Assembly: GCA_965287045.1 (NCBI GenBank)
Contig: OZ336895.1
Location: forward strand, 13,082,001 to 13,146,000
Length of the DNA stretch: 64,000 nucleotides
Direction: 5' to 3'
DNA from: Carcharhinus amblyrhynchos
Taxonomy: Eukaryota
The notes under the pieces were generated by a model. The model made no database searches, was not told the DNA's origin, and was given only the letters and a program-made list of their open reading frames with translations. The position numbers and the translations under genes were made by a program. Of the stretch, positions 24,301 to 61,737 are shown piece by piece; positions within the stretch are counted from its first letter, which is position 1; every line of letters begins with the position of its first letter.

Positions 24301-27300
24301 AAGTGGTGGTTAATTCATTTACAGGCCTCACTAGGCCCAAGGGTGGGGGGGCTGATCATCACCTCCCCCTTGTAAAATTTTGTACAGGTGAGCGGTGGGT
24401 TGGTCTGCACCAGGAAGGTCCCATTGAACCCATTCACCTTCAAACCTGTCACCAGGTCCACATCCACCATGTTGGGTGGCACCAAAGGCTTGGCTGTTAT
24501 GGGGGGAGTGGGGAAGTGAATTGAAAGAATTGACTTTGACAGCTAAATAATAGCCAATAGAGAATGACTTTGTCAAAGAGTTAATGTTCACTGCTGGGGG
24601 TGATGGGGGCAGGAGGAGAGGATGGACAGATGTGGAGAGGAGGAGAGGTTGGGCAGGTGGTGGGTGTGGGGAGGATAGAGGTTGGGCAAGTGGTGGGTGT
24701 GGGGAGGATAGAGGTTGGGCAAGTGGTGGGTGTGGGGAGGATAGAGGTTGGGCAAGTGGTGGGTGTGGGGAGGATAGAGGTTGGGCAAGTGGTGGGTGTG
24801 GGGAGGATAGAGGTTGGGCAGGTGGTGGGTGTGGGGAGGATAGAGGTTGGGCAGGTGGGGTGTGTGGAGGAGGAGAGGTTGGGCAGGTGGGGGGTGTGGG
24901 GAGGATGGAGGTTGGGCAGGTGGGGGGTGTGGGGAGGAGGAGAGGTTGGGCAGGTGGGGGGTGTGGGGAGGAGGAGAGGTTGGGCAGGTGGGGGGTGTGG
25001 GGAGGAGGAGAGGTTGGGCAGGTGGGGGGTGTGGGGAGGATAGAGGTTGGGCAGGTGGTGGGTGTGGGGAGGATAGAGGTTGGGCAGGTGGGGGGTGTGG
25101 GGAGGATAGAGGTTGGGCAGGTGGAGTGTGTGGAGAGGAGGAGAGGTTGGGCAGGTGGGGGGTGTGGGGAGGATAGAGGTTGGGCAGGTGGGGGGTGTGG
25201 GGAGGAGGAGAGGTTGGGCAGGTGGGGGGTGTGGGGAGGAGGAGAGGTTGGGCAGGTGGTGGGTGTGGGGAGGAGGAGAGGTTGGGCAGGTGGTGGGTGT
25301 GGGGAGGAGGAGAGGTTGGGCAGGTGGTGGGTGTGGGGAGGATAGAGGTTGGGCAGGTGGTGGGTGTGGGGAGGATAGAGGTTGGGCAGGTGGGGGGTGT
25401 GGGGAGGATAGAGGTTGGGCAGGTGTGGGGAGGAGGAGAGGTTGGGCAGGTGGGTGTGGTAATAACAGTGAAAGAAGCAAAGTGTGTGTGAGGGGAGTTA
25501 TTGGGATCAGCGCACTCAGTATTAGCCAATCCACTCTGGTGTTGCTGCCCAGCCTGTTGCCCAGTTCCATTGGGAATTCCTTGACTTCTCCGAACATGAG
25601 AGGGAGAACCAGCCTTGTTCCTCCAGTGATTCTGACTTTGATGATGACGAACCCCGAAAATTCCATATTGAGATCAAGCCAGTGACAGTGAAAGACTGGA
25701 GCCACGACCCAGTGACCTCTGTGGAGCAACTAAGGGCGTCGATTGGGAATATCGTCCTTTCTTCTCAACCAATGGTAAGCATCTTGCTGCCCTTTTGGAT
25801 GGAGTGTCATTGAGAGGGTATGGCAGCCAACATGACTAACAGTGGTGGGGGCAGAGGCTTGGGAGGCAGGGCATGGTCGGGGGGAGGTGGGATTTCTGGG
25901 GGCAGCAGAAGGATAAATGTGAATTGGAGAAAAGAGTTTGCTAATAACCATCTAGTCCTGAAGCATGCTCTCAGGTTGGAGTTAACTAGTCAGTAGTGAA
26001 CAAAATAAACATTAGTTTTTATTTAAAGTAAGATGTTGTGTTCTGGGTGGGGTTGGAGAAGAGCAAACACAACACCTGACATCACTGTTCATTCAAATAT
26101 TGAACCATTCCCAAGGTTCCATGTGATGAGACGCAGAATGCTTTATGGGAATCCTGAACTCCCCACTTTTCTCCACTTGAGTCAGGAATTTTCTTATGAG
26201 AATTGGAATGTTCTTCGGGGGGGGTTCCTGGGGTATGAGGCCTGTTGGGGAGATCGACCAACCTTGGAGTTTGCAGCAAGGAAGGTTCTAGTAAGTAGGA
26301 TGGACTCGTTCCTTGTCCAAACTCACTCGTTGCTTCCCTTTTGTTTTACAGATTCCATCCAAAAGAAATTCCACGAGTAAGTGTTTGTCAACCTAGCACT
26401 AAGATTTGGCATCTGTGATAAAGGGAAAATGTGTGCAGGAGAGTAGAACCAATTGGATAGCTCCTTCAAAGAGCTAGCACAGATATGATGGGCTAATGGC
26501 CACCTGTGCTGTGTGTGTGGGCCTTTTTGGTTATAGCGCCTATGCATGTCATTGTGTTGTAGGGATCCAGGTGTTGGGATAGACAGTGGATAAGGGTCAC
26601 AGGAGCATGGGATGGGGTCAGTCCCAGCTGTTTCTGGGAACAGGAACAGTAGAGAGATAGTTCCCTGTTCAAACAAGAAGCTGTGATGAAGGACTCTAAT
26701 GATAATCCTCGGCGCCTCTGCCCAGTACCAGCAATTGCTGTTTCCATCGTTCTGTATTATTATTATCTGGCATTCCCCACACGTCCTTTTATCTCTGACT
26801 GTCTCTCTGTGTAGGGCACACGATCCAATTGGCTCCCTTGTCAGTGGATGGAAACTCTGAGGCGATTTGCCCAAGAGGTAAGGTGATGTCTTGTTAACAA
26901 ATTCTCAGCGTTTCCGCAGCCATCCTGACCCCAAATCTCCAGCCTGAATCGTTGAAATGTTAAACTATTCCACAAAACCTCTAACTAGAAACAAGATTGG
27001 TCACAAGGTCGCTATTCTGTTCCTTTATCAAGCTGGATCCCGCAGTTCTCCAGACATGATCTTGTCCGGCAGTTACTGGGGGAGGGGGGGGTGTTTTGCT
27101 CTTTCCTGATCTGAGTAACGAAACTTAAATGGCACTATTAACGTATCTTCCTAATGCCCTGTTTTGTACAGCCAATTCCAGACCTTCCCCTTTGTTATTT
27201 ATTGGGCTTCATCAACATCCTGGCACAATATTTCACTTTAAAACAGGCTCCTGTACAGCTTTTTGAAAGAGTTGGCACAAGGACGATGGACCGAATGGCC

Positions 27301-42300: not shown

Positions 42301-44663
42301 TAGTTCCTTGTGATCCTCCGGACTCCTTGGTGCCACCAAGTGATTTTAACCCCATTTCAGAGTGGATTATGGAGGGAGCGGCTGATGGGTCAGTGACAGA
42401 GACAGAGGTTGTTCAATTATTTAAACTTTAGAGGGGGTTCCATTCCAGACCCTGAGGCACTAGAACCTCATCAGGAGCCCTGCAAATCCATTCCCTCTAG
42501 CCCCTTCCACACTCATCCCCTGATCACCCTTAAACACACCCCTCCCCTCTCTGCCCTGCAGGGATGTGTGTTAGGAACAAAGGTATAATGATGTTTTTTT
42601 GTGTTAAGAAAGGTGAAAATCTAGGTTTGGTTTTGGGTTAGTGAGTTGAGTATGGGCCCTGTTTATATACGATGAGCATTTATGACCATTGAAGTGAGGA
42701 GATGGGTTATCCAGAGGTCAGTAGCTTTGGGAAATTGTGAAAAAAAAACACAAACTACAGAAACTGCTGTTGCCCAGCAACAGGGGATCAGAGAGATGCA
42801 TAGAGAGCCAGGGAGAGATGGATTTTAGTTCCGTTGTAGAGGGTGAAGATAAAAGTCTAAGGCTCTCGCTAGCTGGAAATGATATTGAGGAATATAGTCA
42901 TATCATAGAATCCCTACAATGCAGAAGAAGCCATTTGGCCCATCTTGTCTGCACTGACTCTGACTGAGAATCTTACCCAGGCCCACTTCCCCTGCCTTAT
43001 CTCTGTAACCCCACACATTTTATCATGGCTAATCCACCTAACCTACAGATCGTCAGACACTAAGACAATTTAGCATGGGCAATCCAACTAACCTGCGCAT
43101 CTTTGGACTGTGGGAGGAAACCGGAGCACCCAGAGGAAACCCATATTGCTCTAAGGTTAGAATAATAGGGAATTTGGTGAGTTTTCTGGATATCTTTGGG
43201 GAGTATCTTTGGAATTCTCTGCCCGTTGAAGTTGTGGAGGCTGCCTCGCTAAATATTTTTAAGACGCGGGTTGATGGGTTTTTGATAGGAGAGGGGATTA
43301 AGGGTTATGGGGAGAGGGCGGGAAAGTGGAACTGAGCAGCGACAGATCAGCCATGATCTTATTGAATGGCGGGGCAGGCTCGAAGGGCTGGATGGCCTAC
43401 TCCTGCTCCTATTTCTTATGTTCTTATTATGTTCTTATGTACCAATTGTGGTGGGGCTTCTGAACCAGCCCTTGGTCTGTTTCTAACAGCAACTCTTTTC
43501 TGGCGTGTTGAGTCCGTATTGTCTAAATCTGAATCGTTTTTCTTAATGTCTGTGTTGAAAACTTTCCAACATTTTCTTGTCTGGACAATGTATCTCTTTG
43601 TTAAAAAATTAACAGCAGACTCCTGTGAATCTCTTCAGTAAATACCCTCCACCATTTAAAAAAATAATGATCTAGCAAGGGAGATCTGGGGGTCAGACTT
43701 GTCTATCAACCAGGATCATGACAAGGGAAAGAAAGCCCACCATTCCAGGGCTGAGGCTGTCACTGGCAAGGCAGAATTTATTGCCCATCCCTTGCTGCCC
43801 TGAGAAGGCTCCCTCCCCTTGTGCCATTTGAACTAGGGTTGCTGCTCCTTTGCACCAGTGAACTCTCTCGATCTGGTGCCCATGACCTGAGACTGAAGTG
43901 TGCGGGATGTAGCTTGTTCACAATAAAATTCTCCTGCTCTCTCTCTCTTCTTGGAAATCTGTAGCTAACTTGTCCGTCTGGCTCCTGCAGGCAAAGGTTT
44001 GCTCCGTGCAAGCTGGGATGTAGCTGATGGCCCCAATAAGCCTTCACCCCTGGCTCTGCAGTTTACCAGCGAGGGCAGTACGATGTCTGGCACTGATATA
44101 TGTCTGGTTGGAGGTGGATACAGACTCTCACTGGTAAAGAAGAAATTAGTTACAGGTAAGAGTTCCAGATGTTCAGTTATTGAAATTGAGGAATATGTTT
44201 ATATTGGGTATGGGTGGCACAGTGCTTAGCACTGCTACCTCCCAGAGCCAGGTTCCTGGGTTTGATTCCCAGCTTGGATCACTGACTGTGTGGAGTTTGC
44301 ATGTTCTCCCTGTGTCTCTGTGGGTTTTCTCTGGGTGCTCCTGTTTTCTCCCACAGTCTGAAAGACACGCTGGTTAGATGCATTGGCCATGCTAAAGTCT
44401 CTCTGTGTACCCCAACAGGCCCCGGAGTGTGGCGACTAAAGGATTTTCGCAGTGACTTCTTTGCAGTGTTAATGTAAGCCTGCTTGTGACACTAATAAAT
44501 AAACTTTAATGAATCTTCACTGAGTAAATCTGTGACGCCGTACACTGGGTCGAACAACTGGGTAATGCTGATTTACTTTCTATTTTGTCACTACCAGTTG
44601 GCAATGTCGCTAATTTTTGCATTTTGATTTCTCCGTCTAGGCAAGTACTTTGCCGGATGCTAG
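12278..44663 (+). CDS. FCHO1: F-BAR domain only protein 1 (muniscin; clathrin-pit nucleator), spliced, 26 coding exons in window, N-terminal ATG exon missing
   Basis: Exons join phase-consistently into 2868 nt (955 aa + TAG). N-terminal F-BAR ([31 protein letters not shown]...), acidic/APA linker ([35 protein letters not shown]) and C-terminal muHD (SRGPSPV...GKYFAGC*). [25 protein letters not shown] and [10 protein letters not shown] match FCHO1 better than FCHO2 as I recall those proteins. Confidence 0.92.
12409..12448 (+). ncRNA. Minimal type I hammerhead ribozyme motif in Penelope-like fragment (element approx. 12402-12507)
   Basis: CAC-CTGATGA-A-GGGGC agc GCTCT-GAAA-GC-TA-GTG. Confidence 0.7.
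12821..12892 (+). CDS. FCHO1: FCHO1 coding exon ([24 protein letters not shown])
   Basis: cttcttgcag/A...CTGGG/gtaagt; 72 nt. Confidence 0.95.
13410..13735 (-). mobile_element. tRNA-derived SINE (second family); related fragment ~39270-39440
   Basis: Reverse B-box GGGATTTGAACCC; core TTCCTTCCCTAAAGGACAC...GAACCAGATGGG. Confidence 0.6.
14000..14141 (+). CDS. FCHO1: FCHO1 coding exon ([20 protein letters not shown]...KMHRK)
   Basis: tttttcag/G...AAG/gtaact; 142 nt; matches ORF 14013. Confidence 0.95.
14295..14447 (+). CDS. FCHO1: FCHO1 coding exon ([13 protein letters not shown]...QKEIDK)
   Basis: cccag/ACA...AAG/gtaact; 153 nt. Confidence 0.95.
14556..14755. mobile_element. Palindromic Penelope-like element (second family) with decayed hammerhead on - strand
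   Basis: ~64-bp inverted arms 14556-14619 / 14653-14717; loop region on - strand reads CTGACAT-T-GGGTC atcta GACTC-GAAT. Confidence 0.65.
14877..14981 (+). CDS. FCHO1: FCHO1 coding exon ([13 protein letters not shown]...MAEAAQ)
   Basis: tcacag/GCT...CAG/gttgga; 105 nt. Confidence 0.93.
15090..16050 (+). mobile_element. Old CR1 fragment split by SINE; other old CR1 pieces ~4040-4410, 5420-5655, 8210-8640(-), 13120-13380(-), 28260-28530, 32930-33260(-), 49790-50620
   Basis: Degenerate KCEV.HF / ERVQR.FTRM / FFTQRV..WN motifs. Confidence 0.65.
15400..15718 (-). mobile_element. HE1-type SINE with CR1-like tail, inserted in CR1 fragment
   Basis: Reverse complement of head and central domain. 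Confidence 0.85.
16364..16665 (+). mobile_element. HE1-type SINE, CR1-like tail
   Basis: Head, central domain and GATTCT tail. Confidence 0.85.
16738..16836 (+). CDS. FCHO1: FCHO1 coding exon ([15 protein letters not shown]...VQVGQ)
   Basis: ctgcag/AAA...CAG/gtgggt; 99 nt. Confidence 0.95.
16915..17530 (-). mobile_element. CR1 LINE 3' fragment
   Basis: Reverse tail AGAACAAAGAAAATTACAGCACAGGAACAGGCC and decayed ORF2. Confidence 0.8.
18400..18496 (+). CDS. FCHO1: FCHO1 coding exon ([11 protein letters not shown]...KGTGKEKP)
   Basis: ttattcag/GTT...CCAG/gtaatg; 97 nt; end of F-BAR. Confidence 0.95.
18666..18710 (+). CDS. FCHO1: FCHO1 coding exon ([15 protein letters not shown])
   Basis: ttccag/GA...GAAG/gtgagc; 45 nt. 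Confidence 0.92.
18835..19880 (-). mobile_element. Decayed CR1 LINE 3' fragment
   Basis: Minus-strand ORF pieces [27 protein letters not shown]. Confidence 0.85.
20428..20703 (+). mobile_element. HE1-type SINE, CR1-like tail
   Basis: Head and GTAGGGATTCTATGATTCT tail. Confidence 0.85.
20760..20832 (+). CDS. FCHO1: FCHO1 coding exon ([24 protein letters not shown])
   Basis: aaacag/CT...CCAC/gtgagt; 73 nt. Confidence 0.92.
21850..21874 (+). CDS. FCHO1: FCHO1 25-nt microexon (GSPDADSI)
   Basis: ctgtttcag/G...ATT/gtgagt; required to restore phase between neighbouring exons. Confidence 0.88.
22220..22946 (-). mobile_element. Probable solo LTR, same family as 38246-39120
   Basis: Minus strand starts TGTGATAA; shared GAATCA...GGRGTGAAAYATCTTAT...TTCTGA block. 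Confidence 0.55.
23323..23380 (+). CDS. FCHO1: FCHO1 coding exon ([19 protein letters not shown]), ends at U12 donor
   Basis: ttttccag/AAT...AATG/atatcctt; 58 nt. Confidence 0.92.
23381..25595 (+). other. U12-type (minor spliceosome) AT-AC intron
   Basis: 5' site ATATCCTT at 23381; branch TTCCTTGAC 25577-25585; terminal AC 25594-25595; joins flanking exons in frame (QN-D-ERE). Confidence 0.9.
24630..25460 (+). repeat. G-rich minisatellite (~31-34 bp unit, roughly 26 copies)
   Basis: GAGGTTGGGCAGGTGG(T/G)GGGTGTGGGGAGGA(TA/GGA) repeats; source of the spurious long P/T/G-rich ORFs. Confidence 0.95.
25596..25774 (+). CDS. FCHO1: FCHO1 coding exon ([29 protein letters not shown]...[12 protein letters not shown])
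   Basis: Follows AC acceptor; ends ATG/gtaagc; 179 nt. Confidence 0.92.
26352..26376 (+). CDS. FCHO1: FCHO1 25-nt microexon (IPSKRNST)
   Basis: ttgttttacag/ATT...CGA/gtaagt; phase fits. Confidence 0.82.
26815..26877 (+). CDS. FCHO1: FCHO1 linker exon ([20 protein letters not shown])
   Basis: ctgtgtag/GG...AGAG/gtaagg; 63 nt, symmetric phase 1. Confidence 0.75.
27596..27647 (+). CDS. FCHO1: FCHO1 linker exon ([16 protein letters not shown])
   Basis: ctccag/GT...GCAG/gtatgt; 52 nt; phase fits. Confidence 0.78.
27970..28061 (+). CDS. FCHO1: FCHO1 exon with [13 protein letters not shown] motif
   Basis: cttccag/C...ACAG/gtaatg; 92 nt; NAGNAG acceptor. Confidence 0.9.
28577..28892 (-). mobile_element. 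HE1-type SINE
   Basis: Full reverse-complement copy. Confidence 0.85.
29710..30033 (-). mobile_element. HE1-type SINE with short Penelope-end insert (~29944-29974)
   Basis: Reverse copy; contains AGAATGCTGGAAAATCTCACC, similar to the arm at ~14568. Confidence 0.8.
30310..30650 (-). mobile_element. LINE 3' end fragment ([15 protein letters not shown]...HHLLKGN*); related copies ~7715-8080, 9660-9780, 18150-18375
   Basis: ORF 30332-30616 reads as a CR1/L2-group ORF2 C-terminus. Confidence 0.7.
30717..31121 (+). CDS. FCHO1: FCHO1 large S/P/T-rich linker exon ([11 protein letters not shown]...)
   Basis: ttttccag/GC; open frame equals ORF 30737; donor CAG/gtcttt is weak (alternative same-phase donor at 31085). 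Confidence 0.8.
31760..31972 (-). repeat. Same ~68-bp minisatellite, ~3 copies, inverted
   Basis: Reverse complement of the 495-910 unit. Confidence 0.9.
32036..32148 (+). CDS. FCHO1: FCHO1 exon (IASVQAESS...[13 protein letters not shown]...GTDA)
   Basis: ccacag/GA...GCA/gtacgt; 113 nt. Confidence 0.82.
33443..33572 (+). CDS. FCHO1: FCHO1 exon ([16 protein letters not shown]...STPAFSA)
   Basis: cccttcag/CCC...GCGT/gtaagt; 130 nt. Confidence 0.85.
34436..34547 (+). CDS. FCHO1: FCHO1 muHD exon ([36 protein letters not shown])
   Basis: cccag/GT...CAAA/gtaagt; 112 nt. Confidence 0.95.
35922..36077 (+). CDS. FCHO1: FCHO1 muHD exon ([21 protein letters not shown]...NAQFLY)
   Basis: tttttgcag/T...ACAG/gtgagg; 156 nt. 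Confidence 0.95.
36218..36495 (+). mobile_element. HE1-type SINE, TAATAAATA-type tail
   Basis: Similar to 2134-2400. Confidence 0.85.
36990..37322 (+). mobile_element. HE1-type SINE, CR1-like tail
   Basis: Head and ATTCTAT tail. Confidence 0.85.
38016..38148 (+). CDS. FCHO1: FCHO1 muHD exon ([16 protein letters not shown]...LLKYQ)
   Basis: gtgcag/T...CAG/gtacag; 133 nt. Confidence 0.95.
38246..39120 (+). mobile_element. Probable solo LTR
   Basis: Starts TGTGA; its 3' part resembles the reverse complement of 22220-22400. Confidence 0.55.
39983..40176 (+). CDS. FCHO1: FCHO1 muHD exon ([19 protein letters not shown]...QPNAV)
   Basis: tttttgcag/GTT...TCTG/gtgaga; 194 nt. Confidence 0.95.
40305..41210 (-). 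mobile_element. Rex1/Babar-type LINE 3' fragment; related copies 41905-42310, 58388-58635, 59375-59895
   Basis: [31 protein letters not shown]; reverse tail GATTTGATTTATTATTGTCA. Confidence 0.8.
41599..41663 (+). CDS. FCHO1: FCHO1 muHD exon ([21 protein letters not shown])
   Basis: tcctgaag/G...GAAG/gtaaat; 65 nt. Confidence 0.93.
42902..43143 (-). mobile_element. HE1-type SINE (headless)
   Basis: Reverse tail and central domain. Confidence 0.8.
43205..43440 (+). mobile_element. Short 3' copy of the same young CR1 subfamily
   Basis: Near-identical to 51616-51835; (TTCTTATG)n tail. Confidence 0.9.
43991..44155 (+). CDS. FCHO1: FCHO1 muHD exon ([10 protein letters not shown]...[13 protein letters not shown])
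   Basis: cctgcag/GC...ACAG/gtaaga; 165 nt. Confidence 0.95.
44210..44506 (+). mobile_element. HE1-type SINE, TAATAAATA tail
   Basis: Full copy in the last FCHO1 intron. Confidence 0.85.
44641..44663 (+). CDS. FCHO1: FCHO1 terminal coding exon (GKYFAGC*)
   Basis: ccgtctag/GC AAG TAC TTT GCC GGA TGC TAG. Confidence 0.93.
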
Positions 44664-44689
44664 TGAGGAATCCTCCCACTGGATGAAGA

Positions 44690-44692
44690 TGT

Positions 44693-44723
<31 letters not shown>
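44690..44723 (+). repeat. (TG)n microsatellite just after the FCHO1 stop
   Basis: Direct reading. Confidence 0.9.
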
Positions 44724-44724
<1 letters not shown>

Positions 44725-45323
44725 AGTCGATTCACTGTGTCCATCTGGGAATTGTTTGAGAGATTCCACTGTTTTGAGTGGTTACGGACTCTGGCATATC
44801 TAACAGTTTACCTCAATCACTCTGATTTGGTCTGTAATGTTTTGAAAAGCTCCCTATTGAGCAGTTTTCTCCTGCCGTACCCACAAACGGGAAAATCTTT
44901 CAACCAAACTCCACCCGGATTTGAAGGTTTTTGAATTTGTTTCCATTCCGACTTTGTTCTAAGCTGCTGCCCCGTGAAACTTGCAAACAGGTATAAAGAG
45001 AAGCAGTAAATGCTCTTACTCACGATCAATTATGCAAAGTTTCTCCCTTGTCTTATTGCACTTGGAATGAGTTCTTGGTTCAGCATATGTTTCTGATCCT
45101 TTTTTATCTGTTGGCTATCCCAACAGAATTCCAGATAATGGGAGTCTCTGCAATCTTTTTGTTATGTGGAAGTTACAACTTTGGGATTTTTGTTATTGCC
45201 ATTTTGGAGTTGAGTACAGTTTATGTAAACCTGACTGATCCCAGCTCAGCCTCCCTGCCGAATACTGGTGACTTGAAGAATGTGACTGAGACTCGGACAC
45301 ACCTTCCCCCCCCACATTCCTTT

Positions 45324-45592
45324 GGGTTGCCAACTGAAGCCACATTGCCTGTCCTGAACTCTCCCTAGGAAAGGGTTTTGAGAACTGACCAAGATGTTTT
45401 AAAACATTGAGGAATTGTAGAGTCTCCAGGGATGTCTGAAACTAACAGGCTGATCAGACAAATCTGATTTGCCATTAATGTTTAATTTTTAGAATTCTTG
45501 TGATTTTTCTCCTTTTTTTTTATTTTATCTGCTGGGAGATTTAATTTTTAATTGCTGAAGGCTCCGGGTGAATTGTGGAGAGTTGGCAACCC
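45324..45592. mobile_element. MITE with GGGTTGCCAACT TIRs (hAT-like)
   Basis: Perfect 12-bp inverted termini 45324-45335 / 45581-45592. Confidence 0.55.
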
Positions 45593-46076
45593 TTGCTACC
45601 TCTCTGACGGAGAGTTTGGGGAAGAGTTATTCTGGGTTTCAAGGAGCCAGGAATTCTGGATGTATTGAACTGGATTCTGTGTATCAGTTGTGGACTTTTC
45701 TTTTTGGTTTTTTTTTGTTTAATCAGTGTTATATTTCCATGTTTGCACAATTGTATCCAAATGGATGGAGTTAAAATTCATTGAAACTTTAACTATTCAA
45801 TGTGCGGCTAGAGTCCAGTTTGTTTGATTACCTGGCCAGGTAGGTACTGAGTGCTGGAAAATGATTCCTTCCTTAATCCAAAGACGCACTTACTGGGTTT
45901 CATCATCCCGACACAGTTAATTGATCCCTTCCTAAAAGTCTCCCTGAATGTACAGTGCCTTTTGGACAGCGTTTAGTGCAATGTCTCTGTAGATAAGTCT
46001 TGTTCCTATTCACTCCTTTGATCCCTGGTTGACCAATAGACATTGGGGCAAAATACAAGGATAGCAAGTTTGTATC

Positions 46077-46247
46077 TGTACCCCAGTGAGAGTCAGCACC
46101 TTCAGGGGAGGAGGAAGAACCTGCACCCCAGTGAGAGTCAGCACCTTCAGGAGAGGAGGGGACCCTGTACCCCAGTGAGAGTCAGCACCTTCAGGAGAGG
46201 AGGGGACCCTGTACCCCAGTGAGAGTCAGCACCTTCAGGAGAGGAAG
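46077..46247 (+). repeat. ~44-bp tandem repeat, 4 copies
   Basis: CTGTACCCCAGTGAGAGTCAGCACCTTCAGGAGAGGAGGGGACC; related TACCCCAGTGAGAGTCAG units at 12648-12720. Confidence 0.85.
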
Positions 46248-47017
46248 TGAAAGATGGATTGTTTTCTAAAGAAAACCTGTCTCAGTAGAAACTCAGGCTC
46301 TTTGGCCTAGGTATTGTCACTCCTGTAGACGTGATTTTAACTTTGATGTAAAAATCTCTGCTTTCTAAATTGTTTAAAAAAAAAAGAATGTATAGCTGAG
46401 TGAGACGCTGGATTTCTGACGTGTTCATTTAGGGGAAGAGTTTGTTAATGAAGAAGATTTGTAGATTCCTGTGGTCTGTGAAGGGAATGGTTGAAGTATT
46501 TAAATCATTAACTAATCAGACTGAATGGGACAGACAGTGTGGATTGCCAACTCTCTAAAATTGAAGCTTGATATCTTGGCACTTAGTTTTCACCAGATTG
46601 GCTAGAAACTAGCAAAGAATGTTCTTCATGTGAACTCTACAGATATTGGAGAAAGCGTTATGGTTTCCAGAACTATCCAACAGATTAAGGAATAGTCTGC
46701 TTGCTTTCCAAGTGAGGAAGGCAGCATATCCATTGGCAGCTCTCTGGTAACCAGTGATGGGAGTGGGAGGGGTGATTGAAAGGTCAACCAGTGTTGTCAT
46801 TCCTAGTTTGGGCTCATGCTGAACATTGGCCAGAGGCTGCCTCACATTATTGAAAAAAAATCTCTGCATGTCAAAATGTTAATTTTCTGGTTTATTGATA
46901 AGGTGACAATTGGGATTTGAGGCAGGGTATCTGATGGAGTTTAAAGGTCAGAGGCAAACATTTCAGGCCTATAAACCCTTGCTCTGCCACCCAATGTTTG
47001 CTCAGGCCTCCTGATGC

Positions 47018-47329
47018 TAGGGTTGCCAACTCTTACCTGACCTTTCACCTTGAACCACCCAACCTGTACTCTGCCCATTGGCTCTGGGAATGTCTGGTGG
47101 CCGGACAAATTAGAAAGCAGACAGACTATTCGTTATCCAATTGGACGAATCTTCACCCTAACAGCCATCTTCCCCAATCTCCAGTATTTTTATAACAAAC
47201 AATTTTGATCAAAACAAACTTTTTCCAATCGTCACGTTTTTGATTCCTTGGTTTTTATTCCTACCTGTGTCCTCAGCTAATCTTCCATTCCTGCGGACTC
47301 CAGGCCAGTTTTGGAGAGTTGGTAACTTT
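47018..47329. mobile_element. MITE with TAGGGTTGCCAACTCT TIRs (hAT-like)
   Basis: 47018-47033 vs imperfect inverted copy 47315-47329. Confidence 0.5.
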
Positions 47330-48477
47330 GCCAGTGATAGAGATTGTCTAATCCCCCAGGAGGGCTTATTTATACTTTGCACTGTTATTTGGATTTGCTG
47401 CATTGCCTGAAAGGGCATTTGTGAGAAACTGGGAATGAAAGTTGCACTTAATCCTGACTGTGTTTTCCTGCTGTGACGCGGGGGGGGATGAAGGTTGTGT
47501 TTTGGGGGTTGTTGCGCCGGGTTTGGGGATTTCACCCAGTTTACAGGACAGATTGGGACCAAATTTGTTGTGGATTTGGGGCTGCTTTCACTTTCAGACC
47601 TGTGTCTTTGGCTCCAACGCTGAATGTTTGTGTTGTGCAGGCCCTTTTGATTGCTCTTGGATCTCGAACATACTAAGCGAGGGTACAGCGTTGTGCTGTC
47701 TCTTTGCGTGTATTAATCCAGATGTCTGTTCGGAAGTTGGAACAACACCGCTGGGCACTGTATTATGCCCCTTGCCTGAGGCACACTGGTTTTGGAAAGA
47801 GAATTTAAATGAAAGCAATTCTTTCTTTCAATTTCCACAATGGAAACATGGCTTTGTTGTGATATTAAAACCAGAGAGTTTGTGATGTAACCAGGAAACT
47901 GATACAATTGCTGTGTATGGCTATTCCCTGCTCCCCCCCGTGCTTTTATATTATTGGATGGTCTGGAACCTAAGAAAGATTTTTGATTTATATTATTAAA
48001 TGTATAAATACCTGAAAACTAGCCAGGACTACTTTTTTTCTGAAGTAGCTTTCACTTGTTGATGTGTTTATTTTTTGTTTTTGCTTCCCCATTTCTATGA
48101 CTCTGTTCCAACTGGCCTCTTTCTCTTCAACCATCCCCCTCCATCTCCCCCCCCCCCCCACCCCCCCACCCCCAGTTCTCTGATCCCCTCAGAGGTCCAG
48201 GTCAGTTTGGAGATTTGCAATGCTGGGGGGAGTGCGGCGGGGGGGGGGTTCCCTGTGCATTGAGTTGTTTGTGTCTGAATACTGATGGTGGTCAGTGTCC
48301 TGTGGTGAAGTCCAGGCTGTACACTGAACCAAGCAATAAAAACTGGCACCAAATAACACCGGCTCAGTGCTTTTCATTCTGGATACGGAGCCTCCCTGAG
48401 GAGGGAAAATTAGAGAATCTTCTGGAAGAGTTGAAAAACCATTTGGTTGCATATAGCTCTTTCAAAGTTCTCTCCAT

Positions 48478-51835: not shown

Positions 51836-52085
51836 CCAGTGCAGAGGACGCCATTGAGTCTGTACTGCCTCTGAGAGCATCCCACCCAGGTCCATCCCTC
51901 ACCCTAACCCTACACATTTCCCATGACTAATCCCACCTAACCAGCTTTCAGACTGTGGGAAGAAACTGGAGCATCCGGAGGAAACCCACACAGACACGGG
52001 GAGAACGTGCAGGCAATGACCCAAGCTGGGAATCGAACCCGAGTCCCTGGCGCTGTGAGGCAACGATGCTAACCACTGTGCTGCC
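51836..52085 (-). mobile_element. HE1-type SINE
   Basis: Reverse copy abutting the young CR1 tail. Confidence 0.8.
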
Positions 52086-52204: not shown

Positions 52205-52952
52205 TGCAATAACCCAGCCTAGCGTGGGATGGCGCTGTCCTGGCAGGACATGCAGTGTACCAGCTCGGCCTGAGATGGCGCTGTCCAGGAAGGATCAGCA
52301 GTGTAACAGCCCGCCTTGAGATGGCGCTGTCCAGGCAGGACCTAGAGTGCTCCACACCAGCCTTTCATGGCGCTGTTCAAAGAGAACCTACAGTACTGTA
52401 GTGCCACAGCTCGGCCTGAGATGGCGCGATCCGGAGAGGACCAACAGTGTAACAGCCCGCCTGAGATGGCGCTGTCCAGGGAGAGCCTACAGTGCTGCAG
52501 TGCCTCAGCTCGGCCTGAGGTGACGCTATCCTGAGAAGATCGGCAGTGCTCCAGCCCGGCCCGAGGTGGCGCTGTCCCGGAGGACCCGGTAGTGCTCCAG
52601 CCCGGCCTGAGATGGCGCTGTCCCGGGAGAACCCGCAGTGTTCCAGTCTGGCTTGAGATGGTGCTGTTCCGGAGGACCCGCAGTGCTCTAGCTCGGCCTG
52701 AGATGACGCTATCCCGGGAGAACCCTCAGTGTTCCAGTCTGGCTTGAGATGGTGCTGTTCCGGGAGGACCCGCAGTGCTCGAGCTCGGCCTGAGATGACG
52801 CTATCCCGGGAGGACCCGCAGTGCTCTAGCCCGGCCTGAAGTGGCGCTATCCTGGAAAGACCGGCAGTGCTCCAGCCCGACCTGAGGTGGCGCTGTCCTG
52901 GGAGGACCGGCAGTGCGCTAGGCCTGCCTGAGATGGCGCTGTCCCGGGAGGG
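52205..52952 (+). repeat. Tandem array, 16 x ~46 bp, units resembling an extended CTCF site (plus YY1-like ATGGCG core)
   Basis: Consensus approx. CCGCAGTGCTCCAGCCCGGCCTGAGATGGCGCTGTCCCGGGAGGAC; cores near 52228, 52273, 52319, 52366, 52419, 52464, 52518, 52564, 52610, 52656, 52701, 52747, 52793, 52839, 52885, 52931. Confidence 0.9.
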
Positions 52953-53215
52953 TCCATTGGCGGGCAGTTGGCAGTGAGGGCAGCGCAGCGCTCCCGCAGC
53001 AGGTCGCGGTCAGGCAGCAGGATGGTGAGCGCGGCCTGTTTCCATCAGCGAGCGGTTTCCAGCGGTAACGCGGCCCGAAGTAACCCCAGCGCCGGGTCTG
53101 TGGCTATTTCTCGGGGTCCGCACCCCACCGGGCCCCGGCCATTCTGCCATGACGGCGGCACGGCCGGACTAGCACATGCGCACTCCTTTCACAGCATTCA
53201 CTGGAAGGTCGGGTC
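52940..53215 (+). promoter_or_regulatory. REX1BD: CpG-island promoter and exon 1 of REX1BD
   Basis: Highest CpG density in the window; inverted CCAAT (ATTGG 52956-52960); NRF1-like GCACATGCGCA 53172-53182. Confidence 0.75.
53022..53024 (+). CDS. REX1BD: REX1BD exon 1 coding part (ATG only)
   Basis: gcaggATG/gtgagc inside the CpG island; phase 0 joins exon 2, which lacks an in-frame ATG. Confidence 0.75.
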
Positions 53216-56200
53216 ACCCCTTCCCTTTCTTTAACCTCCTCATGTCCCACAATGTCTCCGTGCAATTAGCAAAAGAACTGGGGGTAATTTGAGGAGAAAC
53301 TACCTGACACACCAAGGCCCAAAGGGCAGTGGATGCAAATTCAACGGTAATTTCAAAATAGCATTAAAAAAATCTGTGCAGAAAGAGTAGGGGAGTGGGA
53401 TTAATGGGATAGCTCTTTCAAAGAACCAGACAGGCATGATGGGCTGAATGGCCTCCTGTTCTTTCTGAACACTCACTGGAGGGTCTGCTGAGTTTGTTCA
53501 GCGCTTCCTGTTTTTATTTCAGATTTCCAGTAGCTGCATTATTTTGTTTTCTTGTTGGTTGCAGAATGCAAGTGGGCTGAATGCATTGGTGCGCAGCCTG
53601 TATGCGCTACAGGAGGAACGCGTTGAAGCTTATCGGCTTTTCGATCTGTGAGTAATCTACAGACCTACGCAAAAGCAGTAGTGTTTTAAAAACAGTTCTT
53701 CAACTTATTGAATTGATTTATTATTGTCACATGTATTAAGACATTCCTTCTTCCTGTGTAAGCCTGCACACTTACTGCCAGGAAGATATTCAACCACAGC
53801 ATGTCTGTCTGTCTGGCACAGTGTATTAGCACTGCTGCTTCACGGCGCCAGGGATCTGGAGTTCGATTCCAGCTTCTGATCACTGTCTACGTGGAGTTTG
53901 CACATCTTCCCCGTGTCTGCGTGGGTTTCCTCCAGGTGCTCTGGTTTCCTCCCACGCTCCAAAGATGTACTGGTCAGATTGATCGGCCATGCTAAATTGT
54001 CCCTTAGTGTCCCAAGATGTGTAGGTTAGTGGGATTAGTAGGGTGAATACGTGGGGTTACTGGGATAGGGGCTGTGTGGGATTGTTGTTGGTTAGGCTTG
54101 ATGGGCTGAATGGCCTCCTTCTGCACTGTAGGGATTCTCATCTTAACACCCCCTGGGTGATATTTTAAAAATCATTCAAATTTTCGTTCCACTTTCAAGG
54201 AATTCGAGGAGCAATAGATGATTGTTTCTATTCAAATAGTGTGCAGGGATATTGGGGAAAAGGCAGGGGAATGGCACTGAGTCATGAAGCTCATTTGAAG
54301 AGCTGGTGCAAACACGATGGACAGAATGGCCTCTTTCTTGATCAGGAGGAGTCTGGACAGAGTAGATAGGCAGAAACTGTTCTCACTTGTGAAAAGCTTG
54401 AAAACAAGAGGGCACAGATTTAAAATAATTAAGAAAAAAAGCAAAAGTGATGTGAGGAAAATATTTTTACTCTGAGTGGTTATGGTTTGCAATGCATTGC
54501 CTGAGGCTGTAGTGCAGGCAGATTCAACTGAAGCATCCAGTGTGTGGGGTTACAGGAAGAAGGCAGAGAATGGCTCTTTTGGAGAGTCAGTGTGGACAAG
54601 ACGGGCAGAATGGCCTCCTGCGCTGTAACAGTTCTGTGACATGGGTCTTAGATCTGAGATTGTTGATGCCGTTGCATTGAATGAATGGCATGCAAACACA
54701 ACCGTGATTACAGTGTAAGGCTCCAGCAAAATGCTGTAAGACACCCAGAGGCTACTTTCAGCTCCCATTTCACCCATTACCATCCTGCTTCCCAGATACT
54801 TTTCCTTTGGCTCCCCCCCTCTCAATCTGTCTCTGTCCTGTCTCATTGTCTCACTTTTTAACCTCCTCCCATTCCCCCCGCTCTTTCTTTCTCTCTCTCT
54901 CAGTCTCTCTCCCCTCCATCAATTTCTGCCCCTCCCCACAACAGTTATACACTCCTGTTTGGCGCAAAATCACAACAAGAAAATCCAACCATGGCTTACA
55001 AAATAAATTAGGAATAATATTAGGTCCAAAGAGGTGTCATAAAGTTCCGAGAAAAAAGTAGCATTATATATTTAACAGGGTTGCAGGTTGCTTTAAGAGC
55101 TGATCACATGATTTAATGTTGCTGTTATTAGGGTGTTGCCACAGGCTGCTGTTTTACTTTCAGTTTGTATTCTGTGCAGTGCAGAGAACATCTCTTTCAA
55201 TAACACCTGTTGTGTGTTCATTTGAATCTATGTGTGCAAACCTCATCTCTTTTTGTTAAAACCTACAACCCCAACGTAGGACATTACAGAAAGAAAATTG
55301 GCGACGAGTCAGAGTTTTGTTTCATTGAGAACATAGAGGAAAGATCCGAAGAAAAATACAGTGTGGGTCCTGACACTTTGCGTATCAGAAGGCTTGGTAA
55401 AAGCAACAAAAAACTTAACGATGCTTTGACAAAGATCGTTGAAGAACATTACTGTCCAAAGCCACTGATCATCATGGAACGGTTCGGGTTCTACTGAAGG
55501 AATCAAGTGGAAGGCGAAAACATTGCTCAGTTTATGGCAAACTTAAAAAGGCTGGCACAACATTGTGAGTTTGGTGAGTTGTAAAAAGATTCTTTTCAAG
55601 ATTGTGCTCTCCAAAATAAGTCTATCCAAAGAAGATTGCTTACTGAACAAGCTTTGATTTTACAGACAGCAGTAGAAATCGCAGCATTGCTGGAACTGGC
55701 TGCTAAAGAGGCTTCATAATTTGCTGCAGGAAAAAGGTGCACAAGTTGGGAACTGCCCACAAGAAGTCAAAACAATAACAAGCATGACACAGATGTGTCA
55801 AAATGGGCCATTCAGCGAGTGAATGCTGAAGCAAGAATAGTAACTGCAAGAATTGTGGCAAAATGGGTCACATTGCAAAAGCTTGTTGAGCTAGACCTAC
55901 TTCCCCTGAGAAAATCTGGATACCTTCAAGAAGAACAAATTGCATTCTATAAAAAGAATTTTACAAGCTGGAAGAAAGGAATTACGATTGTGAAGAAGAG
56001 AATGTCCAGAAATCATAGAATTGTAAAATTTTACAGCATGGAAAGAGGCCCTTCGGCTCATCATGTCTACGCTGACCATCAAGCATCTATCTATTTGGAT
56101 CCTATTTCCTAACACGTGGTCCATAGCCTTGTATCCTATAGTGTTTCAAATGCTACTTAAATGTTGTGAGGGTTCTTGCCTCTACCACCCTTTCAGGCAG

Positions 56201-59200: not shown

Positions 59201-61737
59201 GAAATGAGTACCAGCCATAGTTACAGCAAAAACAATTTCTTACATGGTTCAAACCGAAGATGAACTAGTTTGGCGACACCATACTGACCATTTGTTAACA
59301 TCTCAAACTGATTTCTGTAATCATCTCCTGAAATACCAACTTCTTTTGTCCCCCGTGTTGTGAACACTGCTGTGATTTGATTTGGTTTTATCACGTGTAT
59401 TGGGATACAATGAAAAGTATTGTTTCTTGCACGCTATACAGGCAAAGCATACTGTAGATAGAGTACATAAGGGAAGAGGATAGGGTGCAGAATATAAGTG
59501 TTGCAGCTACAGGCAGGGTGAAGAGGAAGGATCAGCTTAATATATGATAGGATCATTCAAAGTCTGATGGCAGCAGGGAAACGGCTGTTCTTGAGGCGGT
59601 CAATACGTGTTTTCAGACTTCTGTATCTTTTTCCCGACAGAAGAAGGTGGGAGAGAGAGGTGCGTGGGGTCCTTGATTACTCTAGCTGCTTTTCCGAGAT
59701 AGTGGGAAGTGTAGACGGAGTTGATGGATGGGAAGCTGATTTGCGTGATGGACTGGGTTTTGTTCACGACCCTTTGCAGTTTCTTGCAGTCTTGGGCAGA
59801 GCAGGAGCCACACCAAGCTGTGATACATCCGGATAGAGTGCTTTCTATGGTGCATTTATAAAAGTTGATGAGAGTTGTAGTGGACATACTGAATTTCAAA
59901 GAACAAAGAAAAGTACAGCAGAGGAACAGGCTCTTCGGCCCTCCAAGCCTGTGCCAATCATGATGCCCTTACTATACTAAAACAAAACCTGCCCTTACTC
60001 AGTCTGTATTCTTCTATTTCCTCCCTATTCATGTACCATCCAGATGCCTCTTAAGTGTTGTTAATGTGCCTGCTTCCACCACCTCCTCTGGCAGCGCGTT
60101 CCAGGCATTCACCACTCTGTGTGAAAAACTTCTCTTGCACATCTCCTGAAACTTTTCCCCCCTCATCCTGAACCTGTGCCTCCTTGTATGTGACATGTCC
60201 CTCACTCACCCCCTCTCTGGTGCTGGCTCCCTTGCTCCCTTCTTCCTCCCTGAGGAAAGTGGGAGTTCAAAAATGACCAGTGTGTCTGATAAATAATGAT
60301 TTTATTTCTCTGTCCCTGCCACCCCTCATCTTTTCAGAGGACACCAGGCGTATCTTCGCTCCGCTCCCAATTATGATTTTATCCGATACCGACAGCTGGT
60401 GCATGAAATCACACAAGCCTTTAATCGGATCTCAAAGGAAGTCATTCAGCTCAAGGACCGGTTCCATGAGGAGTTTGATCGCCCCGATCTCTCTGAGCAC
60501 ATCGAAAGGATACAGGAGCGGGAACGGGAGAAGCTGGAGCTGGTGAGAAGGGAAAAAGGGGGATCTCTAACGGCTGGGGACAGTCACTGGGGAGATGGGG
60601 AGGGGACACGTGTTGGAATACAATTCACTGGTTTTGTTGACCTGAGATTGGAGCAGGACCAGCCCAGCTATCTGTCTGGTAAGGGATTCCTGCAGCAATA
60701 ACAGTGGATATTGAGGATGCAGCCAGTTCAAATCCCAAACTTCGAAGAACATCTGTAAATTCCCAGATAATCATTCTTAGCCACATAGATTGCTGACATT
60801 GCTCACCAATCCTTACTCTGAACTTTAGTGAGATTTTTTGTGTAAGTAAAGTGAAAAAAAAGTTCATGCTGAGGAAAAGACCACTTACTATTTTGGCTTC
60901 TGCACTGTTCTCATCAAACACTCCCAGGACCGGTACAGCACAGGGTTAGATACAGAGTAAAGTTCCCTCGACACTGTCCCAATCAACCACTCCCAGAACA
61001 GGTGCAGCATGGGTTTAGATACAGAGTAAGGCTCTCTCTGCACTGTCCCCATCAAACACTAACTGTCCCAGCTAGAGACAATACACATCTCTTTAATCTG
61101 TGCTTTCCCTTTTCTCCACTCACATTGTCTGTATGTTTAAGACTTGATTACCTGTAAAGACTCGCATTCCAACCATTATTTTGTAAATTGAGTTTGTGTC
61201 TTTTTATATGCCTTGTTTGTGAACTGAAATCCCACTCACCTGATGAAGGAGCAGCACTCCGAAAGCTAGTGGCTTTTGCTACCAAATAAACCGGTTGGAC
61301 TTTAATCTGGTGTTGTGAGACATCTTACCCCATCAAACACTCCCAGGACAGGTACAGCACGGGATTAGATACAGAATAAAACTACCTCTACACTGTCCCC
61401 ATCAAACACTTCCAGGACAGGTACAGCACAGGATTAGATACAGAATAAAACTACCTCTACACTGTCCCCATCAAACACTCCCAGGACAGGTACAGCACGG
61501 GGTTAGATACAGAGTAAAGCTCCCTCTACACTGTCCCCATCAAACACTCCCAGGATAGGTACAGCACGGGGTTAAATACAGAATAAAACTCCCTCTACAC
61601 TGAAGAGAATTGTAAGTTACTGATAAAGCTCCTTTCTTTGTCCCCCAGACAGCCCAGCTACAGCTTGCCAAACAGAATATGTTGGACCATCCGGGTAATG
61701 AAACCTATCAAGAGGAGGCCCAGGAGTTGAAGCACAG
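53022..61737 (+). CDS. REX1BD: Required for excision 1-B domain-containing protein (C19orf60-like), 4 exons in window, 3' end outside
   Basis: Spliced: M|NASGLNALVRSLYALQEERVEAYRLFD-L|GHQAYLRSAPNYDFIRYRQLVHEITQAFNRISKEVIQL...RIQEREREKLEL|TAQLQLAKQN...AQELKH; typical Rex1-B signature (LQ.ERV..Y..F..GH..YL, IT..F..IS.E). Confidence 0.85.
53565..53647 (+). CDS. REX1BD: REX1BD exon 2
   Basis: gttgcag/AAT...GATCT/gtgagt; 83 nt. Confidence 0.88.
53813..54140 (+). mobile_element. HE1-type SINE, CR1-like tail
   Basis: Full copy. Confidence 0.85.
55034..59370 (+). mobile_element. Decayed Gypsy (Mag-like) LTR retrotransposon with nested LINEs
   Basis: Putative LTR ending ACATTACA ~55288; PBS-like TGGCGACGAG 55299-55308; gag (HYCPKPLIIMERF, CCHC knuckle); protease ~57000; RT (PIVPVVKPDGSVRICGDFK, PFGITSAPALFQRSMD); RNase H ~58000; integrase (LHERHPGIVQMK, VDAHSKWPEV); stops and frameshifts throughout. 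Confidence 0.85.
56011..56915 (-). mobile_element. CR1 fragment nested in Gypsy gag-pol
   Basis: ORFs 56479 and 56822: KFADDTKI, KCEGMHFG, LYKTLVRPQL. Confidence 0.88.
60338..60542 (+). CDS. REX1BD: REX1BD exon 3
   Basis: cttttcag/A...CTG/gtgaga; 205 nt; overlaps ORF 60399. Confidence 0.92.
61061..61327 (+). mobile_element. Penelope-like element pseudo-LTR fragment inserted in minisatellite
   Basis: Shares its 3' ~100 nt with 12410-12500; perfect 14-bp TSD CCCCATCAAACACT at 61047-61060 and 61328-61341. Confidence 0.75.
61237..61272 (+). ncRNA. Minimal type I hammerhead ribozyme motif in Penelope-like fragment
   Basis: CAC-CTGATGA-A-GGAG cagca CTCC-GAAA-GC-TA-GTG. Confidence 0.7.
61649..61737 (+). 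CDS. REX1BD: REX1BD exon 4
   Basis: tcccccag/ACA...ACAG/gtcgga; 89 nt. Confidence 0.88.

Follow-up and report, generated by a model that had tools for sequence, protein, structure and literature searches.

A CTCF-like minisatellite directly upstream of shark REX1BD, apparently a weak member of a class of motif arrays at gene starts

Directly upstream of the REX1BD gene of Carcharhinus amblyrhynchos lies a tandem row of motifs resembling the binding site of CTCF, and the question raised by this locus is whether the row is an insulator, a part of the promoter or a minisatellite in which promoter motifs were merely carried along. We analysed it within a 64,000-nucleotide stretch of contig OZ336895.1 (assembly GCA_965287045.1; hereafter the window), in the whole genome assembly and in related organisms, following up a preliminary description that had proposed a CTCF insulator or loop 'super-anchor'.

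The array consists of 16 co-oriented units of ~46 bp on the + strand (52205-52952), ending ~70 nt 5' of the REX1BD ATG. A AGATGGCGCT-like block anchors all 16 units between 52227 and 52931 at spacings of 46 (11 times), 54 (twice) and 45 bp (twice), and TRF run on the window places the array at 52214-52951 with a period of 46, 15.7 copies and 72% matches, so that both agree with the preliminary description on unit number, length and position; its statement that all sites point toward REX1BD is likewise borne out in every unit. No further near-match to the anchor block (≤1 mismatch) was found outside the array on either strand of the window, and a BLAST search of the array against the whole assembly returned the array itself as single match, an absence of other matches that is no proof of rarity. 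With a tandem unit in the 10-60-bp range, a single locus and a copy number that varies between organisms, the array has the properties of a minisatellite VNTR. It is GC- and CpG-rich, with a CpG observed/expected ratio of 0.6-0.76, and supplies most of the local CpG-rich patch. Three of its four changes in unit length keep the distance between the upstream module and the core: both 8-bp insertions are duplications of the upstream block that leave this geometry intact, and a 1-bp loss in unit 6 breaks it. Two other readings of the repeat were rejected, namely a coding role, since the period is no multiple of 3, and membership of a dispersed repeat family, since BLAST found only the array itself and the best two-unit alignment to the 46 other arrays described below reached 62/184. 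A search of Rfam with two array loci (L001 and L066) returned no structured RNA.

The genes on either side are set out in Table 1. RNA-like contigs of three runs (X8, X11 and X22) splice the first REX1BD exon, with the ATG at 53022-53024, to exon 2 at 53565; the 5' end of exon 1 is approximate, as the spliced contigs begin at 52949 and 52967 and contigs are no proof of a start. The final core of the array ends 81 nt 5' of the ATG, a promoter-proximal position. Contigs of this kind, none of them from a run recorded as RNA, cannot reveal starts; they also cover the array at low depth, as they do intron 1, and the sole long non-repeat contig of run X15, which was left out of the analysis, falls inside the array. 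The FCHO1-like gene ends ~3.9 kb 5' of the array at a putative polyadenylation site. Other tandem repeats in the window are a G-rich intronic minisatellite of 25 copies of 33 bp (24631-25453), a 44-bp repeat of four copies in the FCHO1 3' region (46076-46245) and a satellite family of 69-70 bp (497-909 and 61328-61602) that is present at other loci too.

Table 1. Features of the window around the REX1BD array, numbered from the first letter of the window.
Feature	Position	Strand	Basis or remark
FCHO1-like last exon	44641..48340	+	stop 44661-44663; putative AATAAA 48335-48340; muHD matches on preceding exons
tRNA-SINE-like copy	51955..52085	-	inverted relative to the intron 2 copy at 53826-53955; family label by eye
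Minisatellite, 16 units	52205..52952	+	GCAGTG block, 5' half-core GCCTG and 3' half-core AGRTGGCGCT per unit
Unit 3 core	52311..52329	+	highest score of all units, 11.9 bits (approximate matrix)
Unit 8 core	52556..52574	+	second score, 11.2 bits; units 3 and 8 alone exceed 8 bits
REX1BD exon 1 (5' UTR and ATG 53022-53024)	52949..53024	+	junction to exon 2 in X11, X22 and X8
REX1BD exon 2	53565..53647	+	Pfam PF14966, E=0.0028; spliced contigs
REX1BD internal exon	60339..60542	+	Pfam PF14966 (REX1-B), E=1.2e-20

The CTCF-like character of the array is supported by the geometry of its units, by the conservation of particular columns within it and by the genome-wide class to which it belongs. In the REX1BD units the upstream module lies 22 nt before the core AG, which equals the distance in the CTCF Spec-seq reference library (PMC10287918 supplement) and confirms the spacing that the preliminary description had considered typical of CTCF. 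The AGT of the upstream block is correctly placed in 14-15 of the 16 units and the initial T of TGCAGT occurs in just five, so that the block actually kept is GCAGTG. Motif columns are better conserved among units than the remaining columns, both when units are anchored on the core (0.90 versus 0.77, p=0.0015, a figure that the anchoring inflates) and in a MAFFT alignment of 15 junction-spanning units (0.91 versus 0.79, p=0.004). The units have therefore not diverged uniformly, and of the two blocks singled out earlier as best kept, (T/C)GCAGT and AGRTGGCGCT, only the leading T of the former falls outside this pattern.

The core itself is a weaker match, as judged with a matrix that approximates MA0139.1. 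On this approximate matrix the 3' half-core (AGRKGGCRS) scores 7-14 bits in 15 of the 16 units. Core position 2 is C in all 16, the one element of the 5' half-core CCASY that is retained; apart from this C the sequence GCCTG is near the worst possible match to CTCF, yet it is well kept (0.90), and the earlier remark that this half is imperfect holds for its match to CTCF and not for its conservation, as it does not drift. The full core has a median of 2.6 bits and reaches at least 8 bits in two of the 16 units on the same approximate matrix, the sixth lowest median among the 30 promoter arrays considered below. Comparison with shuffled units, which had been proposed as a check, gave a divided answer: the full core scores no better than dinucleotide shuffles (p=0.056 for the best unit and 0.54 for a typical one), whilst the combined score of the 3' half-core and an upstream module at 22/23 nt was matched by none of 1500 shuffles for each of two units. 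Nor is the 5' part of the REX1BD units better than in slid controls, 32% of which score equally high. In vitro, Spec-seq found that the upstream site does not compensate for a defective 5' core and that upstream recognition is then lost (PMC10287918), which makes binding at most REX1BD units doubtful; units 3, 8 and perhaps 15 are probably the only ones that would bind CTCF well, and the other copies in the row would be redundant.

Motifs of this two-part kind occur elsewhere in the shark genome. The pattern TGCAGT-N12..21-AGRTGGCGC has 71 matches genome-wide, and position-2 C, which was no part of the pattern, was present at 13 of 15 other loci with a spacing of 16-17 nt versus 12 of 50 at other spacings (Fisher p=2e-5; tallied by hand with tandem rows merged and the REX1BD array excluded), which indicates that two-part sites exist in this genome. 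Such sites are old, having been seen in lamprey ChIP-seq (PMC5504073). A control with wrong spacings, four in all, gave 30 matches including three arrays, compared with 32 matches for two spacings, and is a weak control since one of its three arrays (on contig C31) turned out to be a promoter array.

A search for two 3' half-cores 28-57 bp apart returned 137 matches at 51 loci (a five-copy family being counted once), compared with 29 matches at eight loci for a rearranged control motif of the same composition. Fifty of the 51 loci were retrieved, one SINE-derived match being dropped, and they yielded 47 arrays of at least three units, whose period ranges between 24 and ~52 bp. Positions that had not been searched for were enriched in the class: in 37 of the 47 arrays most units have C at position 2 (p~3e-9 against a base rate of 0.33), the 5' part has a score of -3.0 where slid controls have -10.8 (Wilcoxon p=2e-9), and the upstream module stands at 22/23 nt in seven arrays (REX1BD and six others) versus at most one at any other distance. 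The median core reaches at least 8 bits in 18 of the 30 promoter arrays, and the stronger arrays include those of the KAT5-, WDR20- and IBA57-like loci. The REX1BD array has the upstream module without a fitting 5' part.

Most of these arrays lie at gene starts. Reading each locus places 30 of the 47 at a first exon, a call that is subjective for 12 unnamed loci, and the remaining 17 are not clearly at promoters, one lying inside an SMPD4-like gene. An automated first-exon signature (CpG-rich sequence and a splice donor within 400 bp) was found downstream in the sense direction at 17 of the 50 loci versus three upstream in antisense (p=0.003), and at none and one of the eight control loci; patterns that contain CpG are drawn to CpG islands anyway. 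At six loci besides REX1BD an ATG follows the last core by 11-42 nt, so that the start site is probably in the array or at its end. Pfam or PDB matches of varying strength support 12 downstream genes of the 50 loci: REX1-B, Tudor-knot (KAT5-like), PXA (SNX19-like), KH (PCBP-like), MIR (SDF2-like), Aph-1, DCB (MON2-like), Erv26 (TEX261-like), GCV_T (IBA57-like) and KIF-binding protein, and, more weakly, API5 (E=0.07) and NDUFA12 (E=0.3-0.7). We take six further array genes to be TRNAU1AP, YTHDF, KANSL3, WDR20/DMWD, RBM42 and RRP8, and all the '-like' labels are likewise our assumption. The count of ~30 promoter arrays is a floor, as the strict search misses members such as L057 and the array at the CDK5 promoter, which was found by a separate search.

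Rows of this kind are not a general architecture of promoters here, a possibility that we rejected because none of the first 30 of 279 YY1-motif matches (24 of them CpG-rich, 22 distinct) had three or more motifs, an upper bound of ~13%. Other promoter motifs do occur in rows: CCAAT-box arrays gave 382 paired matches, and about four of nine loci were read as lying at first exons. Examples with periods of ~25-41 bp are found at G000 C5:36,951,731-36,951,946 and at L126, L130 and L138, three YY1-type motifs spaced 34 bp apart at G000 C12:18,339,085-18,339,165 are probably a YY1-motif minisatellite, and several ETS-like repeats (CCGGAAG) occur in the XPA promoter (G000 C5:~36,980,300), which is without a CTCF-type array. 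The CCAAT arrays and the YY1 triplet suggest that tandem amplification of promoter motifs may be general in this genome, which would fit either selection or a mutational bias.

Between species the REX1BD array changes in copy number. Eight of 22 listed runs were compared, all from close relatives, and organisms A, B, C, E and F all have the array, with an identity of ~95-98% that resembles that of the flanking intron. One contig of organism B is without 99 bp of the array and one of organism F without 99 and 275 bp, leaving ~8 units, so that wherever a contig spans the whole array it holds 8-16 units. Among the cross-species substitutions listed, 7 of 23 fall in the 16 motif columns (35% expected; p=0.42), a count that comes from close relatives and may include misalignment between units.

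Taken together, these observations lead us to favour, tentatively, the reading that the REX1BD array is a locus-specific minisatellite forming the upstream part of the promoter, and one of at least ~30 dissimilar promoter rows of CTCF-type motifs, for the most part directed into the gene and probably of low affinity, that would keep starts free of nucleosomes. Each row would have arisen on its own, an ancestral promoter site having been duplicated locally in tandem; CTCF would be its binder, and many weak sites might sum to a steady occupancy with an open-chromatin, activating or directionality role, as proposed for single promoter-proximal CTCF sites in mouse. There, CTCF lies in direct orientation ~60 bp upstream of the genes whose expression drops first on CTCF loss, at the margin of the nucleosome-depleted region (10.1101/095802), and promoter CTCF blocks antisense initiation at housekeeping genes (10.1101/2021.10.30.465508). 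In zebrafish, TSS-bound CTCF is found in 68.8% of early-downregulated genes (PMC8438036). The shark arrays show the mouse type of placement in multiplied form, and it is from this that we infer rows of weak sites keeping a promoter open. The reading is weakened at REX1BD by the weak cores, by a 5' part no better than slides and by the in vitro requirement for the 5' core, as well as by the cross-species substitutions, which are not depleted in motif columns, and by the reduction to eight units in organism F. It is further weakened by the reported lack of orientation bias of CTCF at zebrafish TSSs (PMC8438036) and by a class logo that departs from the approximate mammalian matrix in that positions 3 and 6 of the core are without A.

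A broader version seems to us doubtful. It holds that a substantial number of shark housekeeping promoters are made from tandemly amplified monomers of transcription-factor sites, sense CTCF rows being the most conspicuous and CCAAT and YY1 rows further cases; that the rows arose independently at dozens of genes, serve in place of a large CpG island where the genome is dense with transposons, and adjust expression through the number of copies; and that a fixed CCTCC spacer marks a promoter-specific mode of CTCF binding.

Rather unlikely, in our judgement, is that the ordinary growth of a minisatellite at a CpG-island promoter swept up one or two genuine sites and that the extra copies add little. 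The twofold range of unit number among close relatives, the substitutions not depleted in motif columns and the amplification of CCAAT motifs at first exons would all fit such passengers, as would the enrichment of human VNTRs in CpG islands and in the 1 kb preceding genes (PMC8096271). Against this, the units, alike at only ~72%, preserve their motif columns in preference to the others, arrays bearing the motif outnumber those of the control motif by 51 to eight genome-wide, and the REX1BD array is stable across the species compared at 95-98% identity and is not decaying.

It is unlikely, too, that the rows are read by a zinc-finger protein other than CTCF, such as CTCFL/BORIS or a factor that recognises CCTCC-N8-GRTGGCGCTG. 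For the REX1BD unit YY1 or ZFX would also be candidates, their motifs presumably being ATGGCG and GGCCTG. In 14 of the 47 arrays a CCTCC has its first letter exactly 13 nt 5' of the core, within a stretch usually treated as spacer and outside the approximate CTCF matrix, and the REX1BD unit has none; the missing A at positions 3 and 6 of the class and the conservation of GCCTG at REX1BD in spite of its poor match to the CTCF 5' half point the same way, and the duplication that produced CTCF and CTCFL is probably older than the chondrichthyans (PMC5504073). What speaks for CTCF is the upstream TGCAGT module at 22/23 nt, characteristic of its zinc fingers 9-11 and found in REX1BD and six other arrays. 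As to YY1, G and not A stands at +2 in 84% of the class, which removes the ATGG core that it would need.

The interpretation with which the analysis began, a repeat-amplified insulator or loop super-anchor shielding REX1BD from FCHO1 and its transposons, now appears improbable, although the CTCF-like character on which it drew is supported. The FCHO1 3' end and repeats do lie within 4 kb of the array, CTCF sites are orientation-biased at TAD boundaries in skate (PMC10115646), and housekeeping promoters bearing CTCF are often at boundaries (10.1101/2021.10.30.465508). The REX1BD cores are weak for an anchor, however, and arrays abut or overlap the first exon, an ATG following closely on the final core in six further cases; the element is also not special to FCHO1 and REX1BD, as ~30 of the 47 such arrays lie at first exons. 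In the mouse study, moreover, CTCF loss occurred without spread of H3K27me3 and CTCF-dependent promoters were not specifically at TAD boundaries (10.1101/095802).

That the unit derives from the head of the neighbouring tRNA-SINE, with its TGGCGCTGT and GCAGTGCT blocks, and resembles CTCF sites by coincidence is very improbable: a SINE copy does lie in the same orientation ~120 bp before unit 1 and SINE matches turn up in pattern searches, but alignments of the REX1BD unit to the two nearby copies do not go beyond chance, as 100 and 475 of 1000 shuffles score at least as well, nor do they surpass those of other arrays, 6 and 29 of 46 of which score at least as well.

The reading of the array as part of a promoter row can be set beside known systems. 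Clustered, co-oriented CTCF motifs are found at the DXZ4/Dxz4 macrosatellite, the Igh 3' CBEs, Firre and the H19 ICR, where large units or dispersed strong sites act as boundaries or anchors and are not known as minisatellites abutting a TSS. Promoter-proximal CTCF sites in mouse (10.1101/095802; 10.1101/2021.10.30.465508) resemble the shark rows in lying just upstream of the TSS, in the direction of transcription, at broadly needed genes, but those described are single and proven by ChIP, whereas the shark rows hold 3-24 mostly weak motifs, some extending into exon 1 or intron 1. Closest in structure is DXPas34 at the mouse Tsix promoter (PMC3149622), in which CpG-rich monomers of 30-34 bp, each with a CTCF site, are repeated beside the promoter and vary among rodents in type and in number of sites; it is described at one X-inactivation locus, whereas the shark arrays recur at ~30 protein-coding promoters with dissimilar units. 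Human promoter VNTRs with transcription-factor sites are likewise copy-variable minisatellites that may set the dosage of such factors, with no recurrent CTCF-motif class in the excerpted passages (PMC8096271).

CTCF minisatellites beside promoters are thus known singly, as are promoter VNTRs, and REX1BD is apparently a weak member of a class not described before: our literature search, largely confined to openly accessible papers, found no published account of such arrays as a genome-wide class in sharks. Shark promoter architecture is little described in the literature searched. A shark-genome paper of Hara et al. 2018 reportedly includes CTCF ChIP-seq, and the class predicts specific CTCF ChIP peaks in sharks. 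Promoter-bound CTCF is thought to act apart from loop anchoring, a view that in mammals rests on single sites. If the favoured reading is right, repeated amplification of this site type at the starts of dozens of genes would demonstrate that CTCF dosage at promoters can be favoured by selection, and the 8-16 units at REX1BD would offer a natural copy-number series on which to test the additivity of many weak sites.

Some loci of the class stand out individually. The best place to test it is the KAT5-like locus L012 (G000 C87:~647,600-649,600), where two-part CTCF motifs close to the textbook form make up three sense-oriented arrays, two of them in intron 1 and the third upstream of the gene. 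Two related arrays with similar downstream sequence, L031 and L032 (G000 C3:13.585 and 13.645 Mb), lie 60 kb apart and are likely a segmental duplicate. L066 and L067 (G000 C47:1.67-1.91 Mb) belong to a five-copy cassette in which a CTCF-like site is combined with a TATA-like box and, downstream, a short stretch that looks like a small-RNA gene.
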